A DNA stretch of 64,000 nt from an uncultured Clostridia bacterium. Lineage in GTDB: Bacteria > Bacillota > Clostridia > TANB77 > CAG-508. The first letter of the stretch is position 1; every line of letters starts with the position of its first letter. Position numbers and translations under genes: made by a program. Where the stretch lies: positions 1,414,009 through 1,478,008 of the forward strand of contig OZ006973.1 of the NCBI GenBank assembly GCA_963931085.1, in the 5' to 3' direction. Under the pieces are notes generated by a model. The model made no database searches, was not told where the DNA came from, and worked only from the letters and a program-made list of their open reading frames with translations. Shown in pieces: positions 182 through 61,447 of this stretch.

Positions 182-3100
182 TTAATATTTATTTCTCATT
201 TGATTTAATGTATTATTCATTTCGTCAGAAAAATTACTTCTAGTATAGTCAGGTCCAGTTTTTATATAAGTTTGCTTACTTAATAAAGGATACACCATAT
301 TACCTAAAATTTTCAAGCTATTCATGAAATTTTTTGAATATCCACTTATACTTACATTACAATTTACTAAAGTCTCTAAATACTTAGAATAAGTTGAATC
401 TTCAAATGGAAGTGTACAAGCCTTTATTTTATCTTTATTAAATAATTCTGTCATATATGACATACTAGGATCATTATAGAAAGACATTCCTCCTATAATA
501 GTCTTAGATGTAAGTCCTCTAACTTTAATTTCTTTATTAACAACTACTCTTAATTTTTCTTGGTCTAATATTCCATTTGTTTTAAGTTCTCTTAAAAATG
601 CTGTTAATGGTTGTATTGTTAGTATATCCATTGACTGTACTAAATATATCTCTTGAGCATTTGCAAAATATCCAAGTGGTGTATCAAAATCGCAGTCAAT
701 TAATACTAGTGAATATGTTCTTGCAAGTGTTGTTAAAATTGCTTCTGCACTTGAAAAATCTTTTTCTTCATTTGGTACTGCAGTATAAACATCTAAATTT
801 CTATCAACTTTTATTCCTTCTGCAACACCATTTTCCAATTTATCAATAGCATCATAAGATATTTGTCTTAAATTTTCATCATTATTTGTATAAATATAAT
901 ATGCATTTCTATTTTTAGTCATATCTAATATTGCTGTTTTTACACCTATTGATGAGAATAAACTTGCTAAATTGTTAACTATAAAAGATGTACCATTTTT
1001 ACTAGTTCCAATAAATGCTGCAATTTTCTTATCCCTTGTTAATACACTTTCAAGAGTTCCTGTTGAAAATACTCTCTTTTCTTCAAGTTTTCTAATTCCT
1101 TCTTTTCTTTCAAAATCATTATTTCTATATGAAGTTGCTGTAGATATAGTAGAAGAATTAAGTTCTTCACTTAAATTATTTTCAAATCCTGGCAATGTAT
1201 TAGTTTCTTGAGCTCTAGCCTCACTTGCTTCATATGATTGAGAGTTATTAAAATTATTATTACTATTATTACTATTATTATTAATATTACTACTACTTAA
1301 TACTGAGTCTTCTTTAATTTCAGTACTTTGATTATCTCTATTAAACTCTTCATCAAAGCCTGGAAGAGTTACATTTTCTCTTTTTACTGGTTCAACATTA
1401 TTCTCATTTTCTTCATCTTGAGTTATGTATGATTCTAAATCAAATCCCGGTAAAGTAACATCTTCATCAGTATCATTTTGTGAATTTTGAATATTAGATT
1501 CAGAAACACTTTCTATATTATTTTTGGTAGAAACATTTACAACATTTTCATTATTAGCATTATTTTGATTTGGTACAACAGTATTTGTATTTATATTATT
1601 ATCTACATTTACATCTGCCTTTTGATCTGCACTAGAATTAAAATTCATAAAATCTTCATCTAGTGTAGAGCCATTAGTAGCTTTTGGTAATTCTATATTC
1701 TCAAATTCTTCGTCTTCAAACCCTGGTAATGTTGTAGTAGATTCATCATTATTATTAGTAGTATTTTCTTGTTTTACAAAATTATTTGCATTATCTTGTA
1801 CTTCTTCAGGTTTTTGAGTTATTTTTCCTTCTGGTTTTTCAAAAGTATCAAAAGAACTAAAATCTTCTGTTATGTTTTCATTTTCAAATCCTGGTAGCAC
1901 AACTGTTTCTTCTGCTTTTGGGGCCTCTACCTCTAAGTCTTCAAATCCTGGTAAAGTAGGTACTACAGGATTTTCAAGTTGTTTACTTTCTTTCTCAGGT
2001 TCTTCCTCTGGTAAAGGATTTTTTCTAGGTCTTCCTCTCTTTCCTTTTGGTTTTGGATTAGGATCAACAGGATATTTTCTAGGTCTTCCTCTACCTTTCT
2101 TAACAGGCTCTTCTTGCAAAGTTTCTTCTTTTACCTCTTCAGTACTTGCCTTTGGTTGTTCTTGAACAGGTTGTATTTGCTTCATAGGTTGCACATTTGG
2201 TACGTTCTGCACAGCTTTTGTTTCTTCTTTTGGCATTACTGCAAACATGCTACCTTGATTATTTGCTATAGGAGCATTATTTAGCTCTGGTCTATTTATT
2301 GCTTCAGCTTGTTTTACTTCTTCTTTTACAGGTTCTTTAGGAAGTTCTAAATCCTCAAATCCTGGTAATGTAACACTCTCTTCTTCTTTTTCTTGTTGTT
2401 TAACTTCTTGAACTTGGTTTACTTGCCCAATAGATTGATTATTAGTAATATTTTGAGCTGGTCTTTGAGATTGTTCTTGTGTAGTTTGTATTTGTGACTG
2501 ATTTTGTTCGATTTGTTGTCTTTGTACATTTTCGCTTTGAGTTTGTATATTTTGTACATTTTGAACTGGAGCATTTTGCTCTTTCATTTGTTGTTGCTGA
2601 ATATTTTGAGTTTGATTTATACTTTCCGGTCTAATTGTTCTTGCAGATTCTATATTCATTTCGTCATCTGATAAAACTCTTCTTGCATTTTTTGTATTAA
2701 TAGCATTAGGAATTAAGACCTCACCTTGAATGTTAGGTCTATTCATTTTTTTATCTAATAAATCAATTCCAATTGGTTGTTGCTGTTTTCTTTGGTTATT
2801 AGTTTCTGCATTAGGAATATAAGATTCTTTTCTCTGTTCTTTTTCAGCTTTTTCTTGCTCTTTTTTCTTTTGTTCGTATTGTTCTTTTATTCTCTCTTCA
2901 TATTCTTCTTTTTCTTTTAATTTTTGTTCTTGTAATCTCTCTTTTTCTTTCTGCTCTCTTATTTTATCCCTGTCACTTGCATAAGTTACAAGTTCTTGAT
3001 ATTTTGGGCATTCTGCTTCTAATACTGCTTTTACGTTTATTGGTAAATATCTGATAATTATTTTAAGCTGTTCATCTGTATATTGTGAAGCTATATTATT

Positions 3101-3667
3101 AAAACTATCAGTATATCTTTCTTCATTTTTACCTAATTTTTTATAATAACTTACTATGTTTTGAACTTCCTCTTCACTAACATCTTCTAAACTAGATTTG
3201 CTGTCTCCTGCATTTTCTAATTTATAATATTGCATAGCTTCTTCTTTTGTACGAGGAACATTTATTAATTTACATACATTATCAATTCTTCTGTCAGAAC
3301 CAATTAAAGCATCATATATACCAATATTATATAACTTATGTATCATTGAACTAGATTTAGTTCTTCTATCTGTACAAATTAATATAATTGGAATTTTGGC
3401 ATCTGCAAAATCATTTATTTCTTCTGAAATTGCTTCTAATCTTTCATATATAAATTTATCTATTGCATCATAATTATTATTAGCAAAAGGCTCTAAATCT
3501 TCACTAACAACAATTCTATCATAAATCCTATCTCTTTGAATCTCTTTAATTATTGCATTAAAGTAAAATACATTTTTAAAAGTTATAGTGTCATTATAGT
3601 TTTTATGATAACTTTTAACTATTGCATCAGAAACATTCTCATTACTTACTGCAAATAAAATTCTCAT
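182..3667 (-). CDS. Large multidomain protein. N-terminal CheY/receiver-like domain (CpaE/TadZ-type). Long acidic disordered region with seven T(L/V)LPGFE(D/N) repeats and two AT-hook-like GRGRPRK / KRGRPRK motifs. C-terminal MinD/ParA-like (CpaE-type) ATPase domain with a degenerate P-loop.
   Basis: 1161-aa ORF. N-terminus MRILFAVSNEN...ILICTDRR resembles a receiver domain. C-terminus KIAAFIGTSKNGTSFIVNNLA...VLIDCDFD fits a ParA/MinD fold with a deviant Walker A. The middle is low-complexity and E/K/N/Q-rich with LPGFED repeats. RGRPRK appears twice, translated from about 2040..2100. Confidence 0.6.
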   Translation of the reverse strand: MRILFAVSNENVSDAIVKSYHKNYNDTITFKNVFYFNAIIKEIQRDRIYDRIVVSEDLEPFANNNYDAIDKFIYERLEAISEEINDFADAKIPIILICTDRRTKSSSMIHKLYNIGIYDALIGSDRRIDNVCKLINVPRTKEEAMQYYKLENAGDSKSSLEDVSEEEVQNIVSYYKKLGKNEERYTDSFNNIASQYTDEQLKIIIRYLPINVKAVLEAECPKYQELVTYASDRDKIREQKEKERLQEQKLKEKEEYEERIKEQYEQKKKEQEKAEKEQRKESYIPNAETNNQRKQQQPIGIDLLDKKMNRPNIQGEVLIPNAINTKNARRVLSDDEMNIESARTIRPESINQTQNIQQQQMKEQNAPVQNVQNIQTQSENVQRQQIEQNQSQIQTTQEQSQRPAQNITNNQSIGQVNQVQEVKQQEKEEESVTLPGFEDLELPKEPVKEEVKQAEAINRPELNNAPIANNQGSMFAVMPKEETKAVQNVPNVQPMKQIQPVQEQPKASTEEVKEETLQEEPVKKGRGRPRKYPVDPNPKPKGKRGRPRKNPLPEEEPEKESKQLENPVVPTLPGFEDLEVEAPKAEETVVLPGFENENITEDFSSFDTFEKPEGKITQKPEEVQDNANNFVKQENTTNNNDESTTTLPGFEDEEFENIELPKATNGSTLDEDFMNFNSSADQKADVNVDNNINTNTVVPNQNNANNENVVNVSTKNNIESVSESNIQNSQNDTDEDVTLPGFDLESYITQDEENENNVEPVKRENVTLPGFDEEFNRDNQSTEIKEDSVLSSSNINNNSNNSNNNFNNSQSYEASEARAQETNTLPGFENNLSEELNSSTISTATSYRNNDFERKEGIRKLEEKRVFSTGTLESVLTRDKKIAAFIGTSKNGTSFIVNNLASLFSSIGVKTAILDMTKNRNAYYIYTNNDENLRQISYDAIDKLENGVAEGIKVDRNLDVYTAVPNEEKDFSSAEAILTTLARTYSLVLIDCDFDTPLGYFANAQEIYLVQSMDILTIQPLTAFLRELKTNGILDQEKLRVVVNKEIKVRGLTSKTIIGGMSFYNDPSMSYMTELFNKDKIKACTLPFEDSTYSKYLETLVNCNVSISGYSKNFMNSLKILGNMVYPLLSKQTYIKTGPDYTRSNFSDEMNNTLNQMRNKY

Positions 3668-22320: not shown

Positions 22321-25173
22321 TTATTTTGCCACGATATTAAAAATCTTTCCTTTTACATAGATTTCTTTTACAACTGTTTTATCTTTTAGTAAAGTTTGTA
22401 TTGTTTCATTTTCTCTTACTTTATCTTTAACCATGCATTCTTCCTCATCTTTTACGATTTTAATAGTAGTCTTAACTTTACCATTTATCTGTACAGGAAT
22501 TTCTATTTCATCATCTATTGTCTTTGCTTCATCATATGTAGGCCAAAGCATTTGAGAAATATCTTTTTCCTCTCCTATTTCTTTATATAATTCTTCTGTC
22601 ATATGAGGTGCAAATGGATTTAATAATTGTAAAAACACTTTATATTCTGCTTTATTTATTTGTTTTTCTTTATAGAACTCATTTACCATTGTCATAAATG
22701 TTGCAACAGCAGTATTAAACTTCATTTCTTCTATATCTGAACTTACTTTTTTAATAGCTTTATGCATCATTTTTTCAAACTTAGGAGAAAATTCATCACC
22801 TTCTACTACCATATCCTTTAAGTTCCATACTCTATCTAAGAATTTGCTACAACCTCTTATACTTTCCATTGACCATGGAGCTGTTTGATCAAATGGTCCC
22901 ATAAACATTTCATAAACTCTAAAACTATCTGCTCCAAATTCTTCTACTATATCATCAGGATTTATTACATTACCTTTAGATTTAGACATTTTTTCACCAT
23001 TACCACCTAAAATCATACCATGAGATGTACGTTTTTGATAAGGCTCTTTAGTTGGAACAACTCCTATATCATATAAGAATTTATGCCAAAATCTTGAATA
23101 TAGTAAGTGAAGTGTTGTATGTTCCATTCCCCCATTATACCAATCTACAGGAGACCAATATTTAAGTGCTTCTTTTGAAGCTAGTGCTTTATCATTATGT
23201 GGATCCATATATCTCAAGAAATACCAAGATGATCCAGCCCATTGAGGCATTGTATCAGTTTCTCTTCTTGCATCTTTTCCACAACATGGACATTTTGTTT
23301 TTATCCATTCTGTTTGTTTTGCAAGTGGTGATTCTCCATTTTCTCCTGGTTCGTAATCTTCAATATCAGGAAGAACTAATGGAAGTTCTTCTTCAGGAAT
23401 TGGATTCCATCCACAATCTTCACAATATGCCATAGGAATTGGCTCTCCCCAATATCTTTGACGAGAAAATACCCAATCACGAAGTTTATAATTTACTTTT
23501 CTTTCTCCAAGTTTATTATCATGTATAAATTCTATTGCTTTATTTTTTGCATCTGAAGAATCAAGTCCTGTCAAGAAATCAGAATTTATTGAAATAGAAT
23601 TTGATAAATCATCATATGATTTTTTATTAAAATACATATCAATTTGGAATTTTTGACTTTCAATATTTATGTAGTCATATAATTTATCTTTTTCTACCCA
23701 AACTCTTTCAGATAATTTTGCTTCTTCTTCAGATATTTCTTTTTTATCTAAAGAATTAAGTTCTATAACAACACATTCTTGTATAATTTTTCTATTTACT
23801 TTCTTGTGATCTGCATAAAATTCATCAAATGTAGTTGCATTAATTTGATATACATTTTTAGTATCAAAATAACCTGTCTCTTCTGTCATTTCTCTTACAG
23901 CTGCTTTGCTTGCAGTTTCACCTTCTTCTATTCCACCCATAACTAGGTTTTTCCAGCATCTATCATCATGTGCTAATACTAAATATTTATCCTCTACAGG
24001 ATGTTTTATAATTACACTTACAACATGTCTTTCTGTATTTTTAGCATCTTTTCTTGGTGGATTATTTTCATCAAAGAACTTTGGAGCAACTACTTGTTTA
24101 ATTGGTAAATTAAATTTAGTAGCAAACTCAAAATCTCTTTCATCGTGTGCAGGTACTGCCATAATAGCCCCTGTTCCGTAAGTGCTTAATACATAATCAG
24201 AAATCCATACAGGTATTTTTTCTTTAGTTAAAGGATTTATTGCTTTAATTCCTTTTATTTCAACACCTGTTTTTTCTTTATTTAGCTCTGATCTTTCAAA
24301 ATCAGATTTTAAAGCTGCTTTTCTCTTATATTCTTCTACTTCTTCAATATTTGTAATTTTGTCTTTATATTCTTCTATTAATTTATGCTCTGGGGCAATA
24401 ACCATATAAGTTGCACCAAATATAGTATCAGGTCTTGTTGTATATACGCGTAGTGATTCATCTATACCATCTAATTTAAAATTAACTTCTGCTCCTTCAC
24501 TTCTTCCTATCCAATTAATTTGTTGAGCTTTTATTTTCTCTAAAAAGTCTACTTCATCTAAATCATCAATTAATCTTTGAGCATATTTTGTAATTCTAAG
24601 CATCCATTGGCTTTTTTCTTTTTGAACTACTGGACTTCCACATCTTTCACAAACACCATTTACAACTTCTTCGTTTGCTAATCCTACTTTACATCCTGTA
24701 CAGAAGTTAATTGGCATTGTTGCTTTATATGCAAGACCATGTTTATATAATTGAATAAAAATCCATTGTGTCCATTTATAATAATTAGGATCTGTAGTAT
24801 TTACTTCTCTTGACCAATCAAAAGAAAAACCTATTGATTTTAATTGTTCTTTAAAATGTTTAATATTGTTTTCGGTAGTTATTCTAGGATGAATATGGTT
24901 TTTAATTGCATAATTTTCAGCTGGTAAACCAAAAGCATCAAAACCTATCGGATAGAGTACATTATATCCTTGCATTCTCTTTTTTCTTGCGATAATATCT
25001 AATGCAGTATAACTTCTTGGATGACCTACATGTAAACCTTGTCCTGAAGGATAAGGAAATTCGATTAATCCATACCATTTTGGTAATGTAAAATCATCTT
25101 TTGCATTAAATGTTCCTTCTTTTTCCCATTTTTCTTGCCACTTTTTTTCAACCTTTTTAAAATCGTATGACAT
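22321..25173 (-). CDS. leuS: Leucyl-tRNA synthetase with a ~120-aa Nudix hydrolase domain inserted after the CP1 editing domain
   Basis: Class I motifs HVGH and KMSKS. Editing-domain markers TRPDT and [14 protein letters not shown] perfect Nudix box [23 protein letters not shown] lies between the CP1 end and the [11 protein letters not shown]...RYWGEPIP region. Total 950 aa versus ~805-860 aa typical. Confidence 0.9.
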
Positions 25174-25346
25174 ATGTATCTCTCCTTTATCTTAGAATAT
25201 CAACAATTATATAACACTATGTTACATTTTGCAATAATTAGTAATATATAAATTAAAAAGATATGTATATAAATTTAAAAAATAAAAAATAAAAAAGATA
25301 ATAAATAAAAATATTTTACTTATTAACTTTTTTATCTTAATTATTT

Positions 25347-26231
25347 TTAATTATCATTATTATCATCTTGGCTTTTAGATTTTTCTATGATTTTCTTTTT
25401 TCTTTCATCATAGTCATCTAAAAAATGATATATATCATTTCCTTTTTGATAAGAAATTATTGTACTTAAATTCACATTTTGCACACTACTAAATATATTC
25501 ATATCTATATTATCATAATTATTTTTAAGCTGTTTTATTAATGATTTCATTTCTTCTCTTTTAGATGTTCCATCTACATTTCCATTTGCCTCATATTCTT
25601 CTGTAAATTTACAAGCACATTTAATAAAATCAAGATTATATTTATCTCTCCATTTAAGGATAGCCTCTTCTTTTACGTAATACATTGGCCTTATAAGTTC
25701 CATTCCTGGATGTGATGTACTTAAGATTTTAGGCATCATTGTTTGAAGTTGTCCGCCATAAAACATTCCCATTAGTATTGTTTCTATAACATCATCAAAA
25801 TGATGACCAAGTGCTATTTTATTGCATCCTATTTTTTTAGCTTTTTCATATAAATATCCTCTTCTCATACGGGCACATATGTAACAAGGATTATTTTCAA
25901 TTCTTACTACTGAATTAAAAATTGGGGTTTCAAATATCTCAATAGGAATATTTAATAATTTAGCATTTTCTATAATTTTATTTCTATTTAATTCATTATA
26001 ACCTGGATCCATAACTATAAATTTTAAATCAAAATCCATTTTTCTATGTCTTTTAATTTCTTGAAAGCATTTAGCCATAAGCATTGAATCTTTACCACCA
26101 GATATGCAAACTGCAATTTTATCGCCATCTTCTATCATTTTAAAATCCATTACTGCTTTTACAAATTTAGACCATATATTTTTTCTATATGTAGTTATTA
26201 AACCTCTTTCAATTTCTTTATACTTTTCCAA
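25347..26231 (-). CDS. ttcA: PP-loop ATPase, TtcA-like tRNA 2-thiocytidine synthetase family
   Basis: SGGKDS PP-loop, CYICARMRRG, and ALGHHFDD motifs. Confidence 0.75.
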   Translation of the reverse strand: MEKYKEIERGLITTYRKNIWSKFVKAVMDFKMIEDGDKIAVCISGGKDSMLMAKCFQEIKRHRKMDFDLKFIVMDPGYNELNRNKIIENAKLLNIPIEIFETPIFNSVVRIENNPCYICARMRRGYLYEKAKKIGCNKIALGHHFDDVIETILMGMFYGGQLQTMMPKILSTSHPGMELIRPMYYVKEEAILKWRDKYNLDFIKCACKFTEEYEANGNVDGTSKREEMKSLIKQLKNNYDNIDMNIFSSVQNVNLSTIISYQKGNDIYHFLDDYDERKKKIIEKSKSQDDNNDN

Positions 26232-26338
26232 TATTCATTCCTCTATTAATTATTGTTTTATTATATATATTTTTTATTTATATCTATTTTTATTCATATT
26301 TATTTTTATTTATTTATTTTTATTTATTTTTTATTTAT

Positions 26339-27085
26339 TTATTTTTTAGTGAACTTTTGATTTCCACCACTAAAATTAGACTGACTATATCTTTTATTTT
26401 TTGTTCTAGCTAAAATTTTCTTTTTCTTTGTATTTGATGGAACATTTCTTCCACTTAAAACTTTACTAGTAAGAAGTATGTTATCTTCACTATTTTCTTC
26501 CTTATTCTTTTTTATTTCTTCTTCAATTTTCTCTTTTTCTTTTTTAAAATCAATTTCTAACTTATCTGTTGGTTCTGTTTCATTTTTTATATCGTAATAA
26601 TAAAAATCTCTTGAATATATACCAATACAAATTATAGTAGAAACTAATAAAGTATATCCTCCATAAAGAGCACTATAAATTGTAAGAATAACATTATTTA
26701 TAATTTCAGCAATTCTGCATAGTTTTTTATCTTCATTTTTTAAAAATAATATCATATTACTTAATATTATAATTATCATAAATAAATCATAAATTCTCTT
26801 ATATGAAAATATAATTAATATTAAAAAAATAATTCCATAAATAATATATATGTTTCTAGGAATTTTCTCATTCTTTATCTTATACATATACTCACACATA
26901 ACTAGTGTTCCAATAAGCATATAGCAAATAGCACCAGTATATGCATTAAGAAGTAATAATGTAACTCCAATAAAAAAATATGTACCAAGAATCATTATCA
27001 AAGATGACTTTTCTTCTCTTACAAAATATTTTCCAATATTTAAAGTACTTGCAAGTATCCCTATAAATTGTGCAAATATAAACAT
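26339..27085 (-). CDS. Hypothetical polytopic membrane protein with a Lys-rich C-terminus
   Basis: 248 aa, about 6 hydrophobic helices, KKKKILARTKNKR tail. Confidence 0.45.
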   Translation of the reverse strand: MFIFAQFIGILASTLNIGKYFVREEKSSLIMILGTYFFIGVTLLLLNAYTGAICYMLIGTLVMCEYMYKIKNEKIPRNIYIIYGIIFLILIIFSYKRIYDLFMIIIILSNMILFLKNEDKKLCRIAEIINNVILTIYSALYGGYTLLVSTIICIGIYSRDFYYYDIKNETEPTDKLEIDFKKEKEKIEEEIKKNKEENSEDNILLTSKVLSGRNVPSNTKKKKILARTKNKRYSQSNFSGGNQKFTKK

Positions 27086-27124
27086 ATCACATTTCTCCTA
27101 TTAATAAATATATAAAATTTTATA

Positions 27125-27734
27125 TTATATTATTTTATTTTCAATCAATATTTCTTTTAATTTTTCAATGTCTAATCCGTACAATAACATCAAATGACCC
27201 TATATAGCTTTCTATATATTTATTTCCAATTCCTTGTATAGCATATGCTCCAGCTTTATCTAAAGGTTCTTTTGTTTCAATATAATCTAATATTTGATTT
27301 TTACTCATATTTTTCATTTTTACAACAGCTTTAGAAGTACAAACACTCTCTTTTATTTTAAGATTATTATTACTTTTTATAAAAACTGTCATACCTGTAT
27401 AAACATAATTTTCATTTCCTTGAAGTTTGCTTAGAATATTAAAAGCATCTTTTTCATCTTTAGGCTTTCCTAAAACATTTCCATCAAAATATACTATTGT
27501 ATCTGCAGCAATTATTACAAATTCATCCATATTATTTTTTTCATTTGCTGATACTTTTTCTAAAACTTCTGTTGCTTTTCCGTAAGATAATTCTTTTACA
27601 AGCTCTTCTGGATCTTTTATACTGCTTTTTAATTTTTCTTCATCAAAACTACTTGGAATTATTCTGTAGCTTTTTACAATTTTTGAAAGTAATTCTTTTC
27701 TTCTTGGAGAAGAAGATGCTAATATAATTTCCAT
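27125..27734 (-). CDS. maf: Maf-like nucleoside triphosphate pyrophosphatase. The C-terminus needs a +1 shift at in-frame CGG 27177..27179
   Basis: ILASSSPRRKELL N-terminus. Zero frame ends ...SFDVIVRIRH. Skipping the C of GTA-CGG-A gives ...DVIVGLDIEKLKEILIENKII, matching the conserved Maf C-terminal VxGLP..L pattern. Confidence 0.8.
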
Positions 27735-47266: not shown

Positions 47267-50200
47267 TTAAATTAGCTGTGCTGAAACATCAGCTATATTT
47301 TTATTAATTTTGTCTAATAATATATTCATATCTTGATAGTACTTCAACTGAAATTTAGGTGATAGTTCATCATCAGAATATATATGATTTATTCCCTTTG
47401 ATAAAGAAAATTGCTTTAGTTGATTTAAGACTGCTGTTTGTTCTGGTGTGCATGGAAGCTTTGTTAGAGTTTCAAGTTTATATGCTATCTTTACTGGTAT
47501 TCCTGCATTTTTTTGTTCTACCAACCAATCTTTAAATTCTTCTACAGTTTCAAATGTTTTTTGTGGATTAAAATTTAATCTAATAGAAGTCGGTTCAACT
47601 CCAAAAGTTAAATCTTCAACTCCATATTGACCAAAATCTTTTAAATGTGTACATATGCTTTCACTTATTTTATTAATATCTGCACCAAATGGATAATCAT
47701 AAAATCCATATCTATATTTTCCCGAATTATTAATTTTTTCCATTAACCAATTTTCTTCTCCAGTACATTCATAAATGTTCCACTTATGTACCTCATACCA
47801 ATTACCATCAATTTTCTCAAACATATCTCCTTCTAGCATTTCTTGTTGAACTGGTAAAGTATAAACATCTTCATGATAAGGCTCGTACTCTGTAGCTTCT
47901 GTGCCTTTTTCTATTTGAAAAGATACTATAGTATTAAATGTATAACCTACTTTTTGAGGATGTAGATAAGAATATAATTCTATATCATTATCAAAAGTAA
48001 TAGTTTTTGGCTCTTGAGAATCTTTATGTATATAATATCTTTCTAAATCATTCCCGTTTTTGTCAGTTATATGTATTGATATTTGTAATCTTTCTTGTAG
48101 TCCTGTAGCAGAAAAAGTATAAGTACCTTTTTTTAATTTTAATCTTGATGTTAAAATATTCTTTTGAAAATCAAAAAAACTTAAATCTGTAGGACTGCCA
48201 GTTACTTGTATTGTATAATTTTCTAATATTTCATAATTTACGCCACTTGATAATTGGTTACTATCAAAATATGGATATTTATTATAATTTTTCCCTATTC
48301 TTTTAAATTTAATTATTAAGTTTTCTGTGTATGGTTCAAACTCTGGAAAAATGGTATCATCATAAGTTCCTTTAACAAGCATTGGCTTAATAACAGTATC
48401 TATCGTAGTGTTGATAGGGATTCTAACAACAATTCCATAATTATTATCATTTGATACTGTAAAATTCTTTACAGTTTCTCCATATGCGTCTCCAACATAA
48501 TAAATATTAGTATGTATATTTTCGGGTAATCCAAAACATTTATAACTGTAGTTACCATGTTCTATAGGAACTGCTTCTCTTAAAGATAACTCTATACTCG
48601 CAGTTGATGTACCTTTTAAAGCTAAAGTTCCATCATTATTATATTTAACATTAACTCCATTAATAGTTGATTTGGTATATAAGTCACTAATGTCTAATAT
48701 ATTTTTACTTTTTCTTCCTACAGAATTAATTCCCTGTGGATAATCTGGATTAGGACTTGGATTACCGCCTGTGTATGGTTCATAAGGTTTTTCTTCTGTA
48801 CCTTTTATAAACATAATTTCATTTCTAGGAGCAGGATTTCCACCAACGTTTACTGAATACGACAATTTAATAAACATTGCATTCTCAGGTGTTTCGATTG
48901 TTGCTTTATATGTGTCAAATTGTTGTACATTATCACCAGAAATAAAACTTTTATTATTATCATAAAAACCATAATTCAGTTGAAAAAGTATTCCTTCATA
49001 TTTTATTGAAAATAAATAACTATTTGATGGTTCAATTTCTATAAAATCAGAAGTTCTCCAAGCAGAATTTGATAATTCTTTACCATTAGAAATATCTAAT
49101 ATAGTATCTGTAACACTATCAATATCAAATAAATTATACCCTTCTGTACTTGCCTGCCTAGAATTTCCAAACACACTTAACTTATTAAAACTACTTTCTC
49201 CTGCGTCATCTATATCTATTTCTTCTAACACTTCTGTTTCTGTTTTAGGTAGAATTTTTAGTATAGCTTCTGCGTTAGAGTTATACTCATTTATTTTATT
49301 AGTTGCGTTCGTATTATATTCATTTAATTTATCTTCTGCATTAGTGTTATATTCTTCTAACTTTTCATCTGCATTAGTGTTAAATTCTTCTACTTTAGAA
49401 TCATAATATGTATTAAAATCACTTTCTGCATTATCTGTAATCTGTGATACAAGCCAGCTTTTAACTTCATCTGTTAAAATTACACCTGCATTTTCTTTTA
49501 CGTTATTTGTTAAAGTTACATATAATGCTCCATCAATTACTTCTAACTTACTAATTCCAACACCAGGTTCTCCTTGTTCACCTTTTGCTCCTGTGTCTCC
49601 ATCGTCTCCTTTTGGTCCTTGAATACCTATAGCACCAGAGAAGTCTGTGATATAAACCCATTCAGTTTCTGCTCTATAGTAAAGTTTTGCATTATCTTCT
49701 ATCTCAATGCTAGTTGCTATCATAACATAACTATCAATTGGCATGTTTTCGAAGTCGCTTTGCATTACTTCAACTGACGGATAAGTTTTTGATATTCTAA
49801 AAGGTTCTCCTTGCTCACCTTTTTTACCTTCTTTTCCTTCAGGACCTCTAATATTTATTGTTTGTGGATTAACTAAGCCTTTATTGTTAGACCAAGATAA
49901 ATCGCCATTTTCGTTTATTTGAGGTGTAAACGTAGCACCGTCAAAGTTTCCTAGCTCTACATCTTTCTTTAACTGTGTTACATATTCCTGTCTTGCTGTT
50001 TCATTAGCAACTCTAGTATCTTCGTTAGATATTCTAGTCTGCTCATTACTTTCTCTTGTAGCCTCATTCTCTGTTGTTTCTGTATTTAATTCGTTTACTT
50101 TCTGAATTAACTCATCTAATATAATTATTTTAGGATCGTCTTCTGTTACGTCATCATCACATATAATAGAATCTGATATTCTAATTGTTAAAATACTTGT

Positions 50201-50482
50201 TCTGTAGATTAAATCTTCGTTTGTGTCAAAGAACTCTATTGCCATTTGTAGTTTATTAAACTTTAATAAATCTCTTGTGAATGTGAATTTATTTGAATTG
50301 ATATCATCAAACAACTTACATACTGTAGTTCCATCTGCTAACATGAAGTTTAATTTCTTGTTATACTTTTCTAAATACTCTGGAAACTCGAACTCTATTG
50401 TTGTTGAATTGTTTTCTTCTAAATAACCAAAATAGAGCGTAGATTGTTCAAATCCACGCTCATCATTTATTTTTATTATCAT
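47267..50482 (-). CDS. Phage tail fibre / receptor-binding protein with BppU-like N-terminus and collagen-like Gly-X-Y segments
   Basis: N-terminus MIIKINDERGFEQ... (BppU_N-like). GPEGKEGKKGEQGEP and GIQGPKGDDGDTGAKGEQGEPG collagen-like repeats. 1071 aa. Confidence 0.7.
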   Translation of the reverse strand: MIIKINDERGFEQSTLYFGYLEENNSTTIEFEFPEYLEKYNKKLNFMLADGTTVCKLFDDINSNKFTFTRDLLKFNKLQMAIEFFDTNEDLIYRTSILTIRISDSIICDDDVTEDDPKIIILDELIQKVNELNTETTENEATRESNEQTRISNEDTRVANETARQEYVTQLKKDVELGNFDGATFTPQINENGDLSWSNNKGLVNPQTINIRGPEGKEGKKGEQGEPFRISKTYPSVEVMQSDFENMPIDSYVMIATSIEIEDNAKLYYRAETEWVYITDFSGAIGIQGPKGDDGDTGAKGEQGEPGVGISKLEVIDGALYVTLTNNVKENAGVILTDEVKSWLVSQITDNAESDFNTYYDSKVEEFNTNADEKLEEYNTNAEDKLNEYNTNATNKINEYNSNAEAILKILPKTETEVLEEIDIDDAGESSFNKLSVFGNSRQASTEGYNLFDIDSVTDTILDISNGKELSNSAWRTSDFIEIEPSNSYLFSIKYEGILFQLNYGFYDNNKSFISGDNVQQFDTYKATIETPENAMFIKLSYSVNVGGNPAPRNEIMFIKGTEEKPYEPYTGGNPSPNPDYPQGINSVGRKSKNILDISDLYTKSTINGVNVKYNNDGTLALKGTSTASIELSLREAVPIEHGNYSYKCFGLPENIHTNIYYVGDAYGETVKNFTVSNDNNYGIVVRIPINTTIDTVIKPMLVKGTYDDTIFPEFEPYTENLIIKFKRIGKNYNKYPYFDSNQLSSGVNYEILENYTIQVTGSPTDLSFFDFQKNILTSRLKLKKGTYTFSATGLQERLQISIHITDKNGNDLERYYIHKDSQEPKTITFDNDIELYSYLHPQKVGYTFNTIVSFQIEKGTEATEYEPYHEDVYTLPVQQEMLEGDMFEKIDGNWYEVHKWNIYECTGEENWLMEKINNSGKYRYGFYDYPFGADINKISESICTHLKDFGQYGVEDLTFGVEPTSIRLNFNPQKTFETVEEFKDWLVEQKNAGIPVKIAYKLETLTKLPCTPEQTAVLNQLKQFSLSKGINHIYSDDELSPKFQLKYYQDMNILLDKINKNIADVSAQLI

Positions 50483-57191: not shown

Positions 57192-61447
<4,256 letters not shown>

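Follow-up and report, generated by a model that had tools for sequence, protein, structure and literature searches.

The leuS locus and its product

The window analyzed here, i.e., the whole stretch of 64,000 nucleotides from contig OZ006973.1 of an uncultured Clostridia bacterium (GenBank assembly GCA_963931085.1), contains a leuS gene whose product, a bacterial-type leucyl-tRNA synthetase (LeuRS), carries a Nudix hydrolase domain within its CP1 editing domain. Translation of the open reading frame (ORF) gave a protein of 950 amino acids (aa), as the initial annotation of this DNA had reported, and the peptides quoted there were found where it had placed them, at residues 339 to 362, 382 to 391, 413 to 435, 489 to 501, and 557 to 567. 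In an NCBIfam profile search, the protein matched TIGR00396 (leuS_bact) with 1002 bits against a cut-off of 548, the match being split into two stretches by the insert. Pfam domains detected were tRNA-synt_1, the editing domain PF13603, Anticodon_1, and NUDIX, and the class I motifs were located at residues 48 to 51 (HVGH) and 728 to 732 (KMSKS). The editing-site residues T246, R247, D249, T250, H343, D344, R346, and D347, which include those of the threonine-rich motif TTRPDT and the conserved Asp of GTG...HD.RD, were invariant in 39 aligned LeuRS, both with and without the insert. With the HIGH, KMSKS, and CP1 editing motifs all intact, the gene is, judged from its sequence, a fully functional-looking bacterial leuS, and the conserved editing residues indicate that the Nudix domain is not substituting for a lost editing function.

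A Nudix domain nested within CP1

The Pfam NUDIX profile (PF00293) matched residues 398 to 498 with an E value of 2.8e-10 and 40.7 bits, compared with a cut-off of 21.1. The Nudix box conformed exactly to the consensus GX5EX7REUXEEXGU, reading G413-x5-E419-x7-R427-E428-M-T-E431-E432-T-G434-Y435. An AlphaFold2 (AF2) model of residues 370 to 512, built from a 57-sequence alignment, had a mean predicted local distance difference test (pLDDT) score of 96.5 and a predicted template modeling (pTM) score of 0.88, and displayed an alpha/beta/alpha Nudix fold with the REx2EE residues on helix 421-433. When this model was compared with the PDB using Foldseek, all of the best matches listed were Nudix enzymes, with a probability of 1.00 and template modeling (TM) scores of 0.6 to 0.74. 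The claim that a bona fide LeuRS contains a complete, in-frame Nudix domain with a perfect box was therefore borne out, at a level far above what chance would give, and the span originally given for it, 23670..24050, corresponds to residues 375 to 502, which lie within an inserted segment of residues 363 to 525.

The extent of this segment was defined by comparison with the insert-less LeuRS P0196, P0202, P0208, P0218, and P0250 (805 to 811 aa; flanks 81 to 91% identical), in which residues 363 to 525 are represented by a loop of just 14 to 19 residues. The closest of these was P0196 (811 aa; 91% and 85% identical in the two flanks), with the loop APKDLDVTNTSEYDSEKAFTDVENG, and relative to it the net gain was ∼140 to 145 aa. 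The extra segment was thus present as first described, but it was larger than the ∼120 aa originally estimated. Its placement also required revision. Window residues 201 to 363 aligned with residues 203 to 363 of Thermus thermophilus LeuRS (1H3N) and residues 526 to 599 with residues 381 to 454, the insert taking the place of residues 364 to 380. The PF13603 editing-domain profile was broken by the insert at position 147 of 185, and a further CP1 strand and helix (residues 526 to 552) followed before the linker at residues 557 to 567. These three observations place the insert inside CP1, and not between CP1 and the catalytic core as had been proposed. The Nudix domain of ∼140 aa is therefore nested in a CP1 surface loop between the strands IKQVV and ISINS, and since CP1 is itself an insertion, the arrangement is that of a domain within an inserted domain. 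In an AF2 model of the full-length protein (pLDDT, 88.3; pTM, 0.76), the insert and both linkers had pLDDT values of 84 to 96, suggesting an attachment that is well defined and not floppy. The features of the gene are listed in Table 1.

An origin as an intein or other self-splicing element or mobile intron was rejected, as the junctions KQVV/APKFF and DLSNS/ISINS lacked splice-junction residues and the fold is Nudix rather than Hint. A defense or phage origin was likewise unsupported: the sole PADLOC match was marginal (E = 0.0023), and the PHROGs matches were all to generic Nudix families.

Table 1. Features of the window leuS gene (nucleotide positions within the window) and hydrolase domains nested in other Nudix-bearing LeuRS (protein residues)
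Feature	Position	Strand	Evidence or content
leuS coding sequence	22321..25173	minus	Single uninterrupted ORF, 950 codons plus stop at 22321..22323; bacterial-type LeuRS
Catalytic core, N-terminal half, Rossmann (residues 1-223)	24505..25173	minus	Pfam tRNA-synt_1 at residues 11-220; HIGH motif HVGH at 25021..25032
CP1 editing domain before insert (residues 224-362)	24088..24504	minus	TTRPDT at residues 245-250, conserved stretch to residue 347; PF13603 at residues 220-369, profile positions 2-147 of 185
Inserted segment (residues 363-525): N-linker, Nudix domain, C-linker	23599..24087	minus	Alignments to insert-less LeuRS P0196, P0202, P0208, P0218, P0250 and to T. thermophilus LeuRS
Nudix fold proper (residues 378-511), strand beta-1 to last helix	23641..24042	minus	Predicted secondary structure, Foldseek, PF00293
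Nudix box (residues 413-435), catalytic and metal-binding helix	23869..23937	minus	Motif position, family conservation
Subfamily signature F-Y-A-x-H-K-x-x-N-R (residues 452-461), beta-hairpin after box	23791..23820	minus	Family conservation; candidate phosphate- and base-binding element
CP1 editing domain after insert (residues 526-560)	23494..23598	minus	Strand ISI, helix 539-552, lead-in to linker at residues 557-567
Catalytic core, second half (residues 561-800)	22774..23493	minus	RYWGEPIP, Cys-rich zinc motifs, KMSKS at 22978..22992
Anticodon-binding and C-terminal tRNA-binding domains (residues 801-950)	22324..22773	minus	PF08264 at residues 801-911
Ham1p_like in P0029	984-1167		
HAD_2 in P0099	654-808		
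Ser_hydrolase in P0038	601-766		
Ser_hydrolase in P0094	239-399		
Ser_hydrolase in P0127	26-212		
Ser_hydrolase in L005:4837-8343	621-786		

Recurrence, conservation, and selection

The identical window protein (P0151) was represented by 59 member sequences on 16 contigs that came from different samples and shared the same neighboring genes. PF00293 was carried by a total of 55 clusters of orthologous LeuRS of 913 to 970 aa (70 to 100% identity), originating from ENA, NCBI, JGI, and Logan. Lack of conservation of the box among orthologues had been set beforehand by the initial annotation as a possible refutation of its reading; the strict box was instead found to be kept in 54 of these 55 clusters. 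In a codon comparison of the window gene with three Clostridia genome bins (L001 to L003), the ratio of nonsynonymous to synonymous substitution rates (dN/dS) was 0.15 to 0.25 for the insert and 0.04 to 0.21 for the LeuRS body, with similar dS in both. The insert is thus coinherited with its host and under purifying selection, if looser than that on the core. An assembly chimera or a miscalled ORF joining two genes, against which the initial annotation had already argued, can for practical purposes be dismissed, being refuted by this recurrence across dozens of clusters from independent sources together with the unbroken 950-codon frame, the similar dS, and the purifying selection.

Across 158 instances of the domain, the box residues G413, G414, E428, E431, E432, G434, and Y435 were each kept in at least 137, and the three glutamates E428, E431, and E432 in 154 to 156. 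Conservation extended well outside the box, to R382 (153/158), K457 (155/158), N460 (153/158), R461 (138/158), E484 (137/158), and W492 (153/158); with R427, T433, and L472 included, all of the residues named here were present in at least 131 instances. At the insertion site used in the window (site A, after residue 362), the strict box was observed in 72 of 88 instances. Judged by the near-invariance of the box and of the additional R/K/N/R/E/W positions over the 158 instances, this is a Nudix subfamily in its own right, recognizable by the signature R...GG[IV]ExGE...REx2EETGY...FYAxHKxxNR...E...W.

Two kinds of deviation from the box were noted. One Nudix subclade, comprising P0001, P0002, P0005, P0006 (second tandem copies), P0051, P0092, P0116, and P0139, had the variant GG.E.GQT...A.AEI.EETGY, with Glu replaced by Gln at GX5E and Arg by Ala in RE. 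This variant was typical of the second copy in tandem pairs, and the activity of such copies may be altered or reduced. In P0052, P0088, P0104, P0113, P0136, P0044, and P0086, Trp occupied otherwise invariant Gly positions in the box region (e.g., WWVEENES...EETWY), which suggests source lineages in which UGA encodes Gly (code 25, Gracilibacteria/Absconditabacteria), their sequences having been translated with UGA as Trp.

Hosts, insertion sites, and free-standing members

To define the distribution of the domain, the 158-aa insert was searched exhaustively with HMMER against 1.84 billion cluster representatives, yielding 316 clusters at E ≤ 1e-3 and 155 at E ≤ 1e-10. A word-indexed protein search with the insert alone had returned nothing even though its database holds the identical full-length protein; this reflected a limit of the tool rather than rarity, and the result was superseded by the HMMER search. 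Hosts were mapped for the best 150 of the 316 clusters using the LeuRS flanks as probes. LeuRS or LeuRS fragments accounted for 104 of these and free-standing proteins of ≤230 aa for 35, while among the remaining 11, Pfam identified LeuRS editing-domain fragments and one complete prolyl-tRNA synthetase (ProRS), P0053. In this class II enzyme of 643 aa, the Nudix domain occupied residues 398 to 515, between the anticodon-binding domain and ProRS-C_1. P0053 was noted together with P0012, P0013, and P0043 for the ProRS insertion; in the domain tree they cluster with P0028 and P0065, two sequences with no similarity to ProRS.

Within LeuRS, about four Nudix positions were distinguished: after residue 362, as in the window; at the entry to CP1, near residues 209 and 238; and in the zinc-motif region near residues 632 to 634. 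Among the same best 150 clusters, nine LeuRS contained two Nudix copies and two contained three. Where a source name or genome title was available, the hosts were Patescibacteria, namely, Candidatus Paceibacterota, Candidatus Saccharimonadales, and a genome bin titled as Patescibacteria group; the Patescibacteria bin L005 had its insert at the same site as the window. The LeuRS-Nudix combination is therefore not a one-off. The domain belongs to a widespread LeuRS-associated subfamily, spread over Clostridia and Patescibacteria, that uses several insertion sites and can be present in more than one copy. It is mostly nested in LeuRS (in a gut Clostridia clade and widely in Patescibacteria) and is also found as a free-standing small enzyme.

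The free-standing homologues were 150 to 200 aa in length and 40 to 52% identical to the insert. One of them, P0275, was encoded on contig L012 (2545-12375) within a dense putative metabolite-repair cluster comprising four Nudix genes (its own included), Ham1p_like, HAD, His_Phos_1, LDcluster4, Ser_hydrolase, a flavin reductase, and a gene with a faint 2'-5' RNA ligase-like match. On other contigs, the free-standing homologue had as neighbors a GNAT gene and a gene for a PnuC transporter. No specific pathway emerged from the surroundings on the contigs examined, which held only generic house-cleaning neighbors and the PnuC transporter.

Other hydrolases were also found nested in Nudix-bearing LeuRS of Patescibacteria, extending the hosts to 1100 to 1330 aa: Ham1p_like (ITPase; in P0029, which NCBI lists as RdgB/HAM1), HAD_2, and the serine hydrolase PF06821 (Table 1). 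A nested serine hydrolase was 40% identical to a free-standing one located two genes from a free-standing Nudix gene. LeuRS thus seems to have taken in small house-cleaning enzymes repeatedly.

History of the insert in Clostridia

The body of the window LeuRS was 81 to 91% identical to insert-less LeuRS named as Clostridia or Clostridium sp. and 41 to 66% identical to non-Clostridial (Patescibacteria-type) LeuRS clusters, which rules out transfer of the whole leuS gene from Patescibacteria to Clostridia. In a neighbor-joining tree of the body, insert-bearing and insert-less LeuRS were interleaved in one tight clade. The insert-less P0196, which is sister to an insert-bearing sequence, retained APKDLDVTNTS after IKQVV. 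This remnant resembles the N-linker of the insert and looks like the scar of a precise loss, indicating that the absence of the domain from P0196 is secondary. Such patchy presence among very close relatives indicates that the insert is a dispensable accessory and not an integral part of LeuRS.

The identity between inserts fell to 38 to 51% while that of the LeuRS bodies remained at 82 to 92%. In a poorly resolved neighbor-joining tree of the domain (140 columns), the Clostridial inserts fell into at least two groups, between which free-standing and Patescibacteria members were placed. These comparisons would be accounted for by inserts that either evolve fast or have been replaced.

Proposed role of the Nudix domain

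On the strength of its conserved active site, the Nudix domain is probably a working pyrophosphohydrolase that LeuRS carries as a tethered accessory. The polypeptide would then have a third active site, that of a Mg2+-dependent nucleoside-polyphosphate pyrophosphohydrolase, which would ride on the mobile CP1 domain. This tethered site would serve an accessory or house-cleaning function separate from both aminoacylation and editing.

Clues to the substrate were sought among curated families and known structures. The most frequent NCBIfam matches, all of them weak and far below cut-off, were RppH (47/57 and 41/57 members), NudB (37/57), and YtkD (31/57). For the RppH and YtkD models, the scores were 29.3 bits against a cut-off of 118 (NF001936), 25.5 against 116 (NF001938), and 28.1 against 154 (TIGR02705); the MutT 8-oxo-dGTPase models were likewise not reached, with 15.9 against 97.9 (TIGR00586) and 17.8 against 148 (NF008044). 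PDB profile matches were led by Enterococcus faecalis 2AZW, lupin Ap4A hydrolase, and the AvrM14 Nudix effectors, each with an E value of ∼4e-8, and Foldseek ranked 2AZW, NudI, NudB, RppH, CT771, NudC, Rv2985, and MutT-like proteins almost equally. If the enzyme is active, dinucleoside polyphosphates (Ap4A/Ap4N), the first idea of the initial annotation, are a possible substrate and the most attractive specific one, because the domain is fused to two different synthetases and synthetases make Ap4N. To our knowledge, dinucleoside polyphosphates are also the only Nudix substrates that synthetases themselves produce. RppH-type 5'-polyphosphate or capped RNA ends would have only a small chance of being the substrate, the remainder of the likelihood falling to other noncanonical nucleoside triphosphates (NTPs) or nucleoside diphosphate-X (NDP-X) compounds.

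Several observations weigh against the proposed role or its more specific forms. The inference of activity draws on the invariant residues E428, E431, and E432 and on the dN/dS of the insert, and the window protein has Ser at residue 488, a position occupied by His in 115 of the 158 family members. As no NCBIfam subfamily model was matched at its cut-off and the Foldseek Nudix classes were nearly tied, neither sequence nor fold singles out a substrate class. Furthermore, the Ham1, HAD, and serine hydrolase domains nested in Patescibacteria LeuRS indicate that LeuRS may merely be a permissive host, which weakens the argument for a synthetase-specific substrate. Nor does the proposed role account for the strong preference for LeuRS as host.

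A serious rival, if on the whole an unlikely one, is that the domain is a pure passenger: an ordinary house-cleaning Nudix enzyme without a functional link to leucylation, for which LeuRS is a permissive, constitutively expressed host that provided gene economy in small genomes, with the arrangement later being passed to Clostridia. Consistent with this, at least five different loops of Patescibacteria LeuRS harbor nested Ham1p_like, HAD_2, Ser_hydrolase, and other Nudix types, the nested Nudix and serine hydrolase have free-standing relatives that share a house-cleaning gene cluster, and the insert has been gained or lost among LeuRS that are >80% identical. A passenger would not, however, be expected to show the host preference observed, where LeuRS accounted for 104 of the best 150 clusters and the only other host seen was another synthetase, ProRS. 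The maintenance of the insert by purifying selection in Clostridia, which are not extreme genome streamliners, and the presence of up to three copies per LeuRS also argue against a passenger.

At the opposite end lies a reading that we regard as speculative and improbable, in which LeuRS, and occasionally ProRS, would be a platform coupling tRNA charging to nucleotide-alarmone or RNA 5'-end metabolism. A CP1-tethered, RppH-like Nudix would destroy Ap4N or Np4N/ppp caps where synthetases make them, or would act on the 5' end of the bound tRNA acceptor stem, and the nested Ham1, HAD, and serine hydrolase domains would together form an unrecognized synthetase-borne sanitation system rather than random passengers.

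The narrower proposal of an RppH-like RNA 5'-end enzyme is distinctly improbable. With the acceptor end held by CP1, such an enzyme would strip pyrophosphate or a cap (ppp, NAD, or Np4N) off the 5' end of tRNA-Leu or another RNA. The nearest curated families are indeed the two bacterial RNA pyrophosphohydrolases RppH and YtkD, Escherichia coli RppH and the AvrM14 effectors, which decap mRNA, are among the PDB neighbors, and CP1 is known to contact the tRNA acceptor end. Against it stand the distance from the family cut-offs (29 bits compared with 118 to 154), the 5'-monophosphates that RNase P leaves on mature bacterial tRNAs, and the existence of free-standing members.

It is very unlikely that the Nudix fold has become a noncatalytic CP1 appendage, whether tRNA binding, regulatory (nucleotide sensing), or purely structural. 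The linkers, with pLDDT values of 84 to 91, do suggest fixed packing on CP1, and a minority of domains, mainly second tandem copies, have a degenerate box (the GQT and A-x-A-E variants). However, the near-invariance of the three box glutamates, the strictness of the full box in the window clade, and the occurrence of the same domain as a stand-alone protein of ∼160 aa all favor catalysis.

A fidelity module, the second idea of the initial annotation, is hardly to be expected: the Nudix would hydrolyze misactivated aminoacyl-adenylates (Nva-AMP, Ile-AMP) as an extra pretransfer editing site, in keeping with its location in the editing domain and its restriction to synthetase hosts, but an aminoacyl-AMP is a nucleoside monophosphate acyl anhydride and not an NDP-X compound, making the reaction chemically unlikely, the CP1 posttransfer editing residues are invariant in 39/39 aligned LeuRS so that there is nothing to replace, and both free-standing homologues and insert-less sister LeuRS exist. 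We know of no aminoacyl-AMP hydrolases other than the synthetases themselves and HIT proteins.

Other features of the window

The region upstream of leuS was very AT rich, with a GC content of 15 to 20% at 25174..25346 and 26100..27100. No T-box leader was detected upstream of leuS, and no Rfam family was found at gathering thresholds anywhere in the 64-kb window. A Maf-family nucleotide pyrophosphatase, also a house-cleaning enzyme, is encoded at 27165..27734 on the minus strand, three genes upstream of leuS and on the same strand, probably by coincidence. Three very large minus-strand ORFs, at 182..3667 (1161 aa), 47267..50482 (1071 aa), and 58093..61065 (990 aa), had no Pfam match at E ≤ 1e-5.

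Novelty and implications

Bacterial aminoacyl-tRNA synthetases are usually seen as architecturally conservative, appended catalytic domains being mainly a eukaryotic feature. In the present case, the editing domain of an essential bacterial synthetase houses a further enzyme, unrelated to it and apparently active. LeuRS and Nudix each come from well-known families, and it is their combination that is new. The initial annotation knew of no described fusion of this kind, and full-text literature searches likewise found no account of LeuRS with a Nudix domain or of Patescibacteria LeuRS with nested domains. In a 2026 survey of domain insertions, the LeuRS editing domain was listed only as an inserted module and never as a host (PMC13114784).

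The Nudix domain is visible in precomputed Pfam annotations of LeuRS proteins, but the protein names are generic or wrong. LeuRS-Nudix proteins are called only "class I tRNA ligase family protein," and a LeuRS of 1330 aa is named "RdgB/HAM1 family non-canonical purine NTP pyrophosphatase"; entries affected by misleading or generic names include P0339 (MCK5490653.1), P0001 (MDO8574452.1), and P0201. The arrangement is neither rare nor accidental, since it was found in more than 100 LeuRS clusters, in about four loops, with up to three copies, and in two very distant lineages, the Clostridia of human and animal guts and the Patescibacteria.

If its substrates are dinucleoside polyphosphates made by synthetases or RNA 5' ends, the Nudix domain would physically connect tRNA charging with the turnover of alarmones or RNA caps. 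Even as a passenger, it would provide a natural map of permissive LeuRS insertion sites, of use in protein engineering and in work on drugs directed at LeuRS, such as the benzoxaboroles, which bind CP1, and it would still be a source of systematic misannotation under the names quoted above. Close pairs of LeuRS with and without the insert, such as the window protein and P0196, are already at hand for experimental comparison.

Comparison with known systems

Among the curated families, the nearest to the window Nudix are RppH/NudH and Bacillus subtilis YtkD, RNA 5' pyrophosphohydrolases that also hydrolyze dinucleoside polyphosphates. They are structural neighbors, single-domain proteins of similar size with a canonical box, but they are free-standing, whereas the window Nudix is nested in a synthetase, scores 4 to 5 times under their cut-offs, is only ∼18% identical, and has its own signature R382...FYAxHKxxNR...E484...W492.

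The Nudix Ap4A hydrolases are represented by the lupin (1F3Y/1JKN), Chlamydia CT771 (4MPO), and Mycobacterium tuberculosis Rv2985 (9CXX) enzymes. The profile match to 1F3Y (E = 3.7e-8) covered only the box-containing N-terminal half, and CT771 gave Foldseek TM scores of 0.72 to 0.74 to the insert model, other Nudix classes scoring equally. In the window Nudix, Y453 lies 18 residues after the box and is followed by basic residues; an aromatic residue 17 to 18 positions after the box and then basic residues is a pattern that we take to resemble that of Ap4A hydrolases, and we treat it only as a lead.

The best full-length match was the E. faecalis MutT/nudix protein 2AZW from structural genomics, with a profile E value of 3.6e-8 (positions 6 to 142), a Foldseek E value of 1.9e-8, and F-Y-x-x-H-R after the box. 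It differs in being free-standing and 18% identical, and as an uncharacterized protein it offers no functional clue.

A comparable architecture is that of isoleucyl-tRNA synthetase (IleRS) with an N-acetyltransferase domain (NCBIfam NF040702, ileS_w_GNAT), in which a class I synthetase is likewise joined to an unrelated catalytic domain and which is recognized by annotation pipelines. Host, guest fold, and position are different, and NCBIfam contains no curated model for LeuRS-Nudix. With the canonical bacterial LeuRS of T. thermophilus (1H3N/2BYT) and E. coli (4AQ7), finally, the window protein shares the same core, the HIGH and KMSKS motifs, the zinc motifs, the CP1 residues, and the anticodon-binding and C-terminal domains, and it differs from them in having an extra enzyme domain of ∼145 aa in the loop equivalent to T. 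thermophilus residues 364 to 380.

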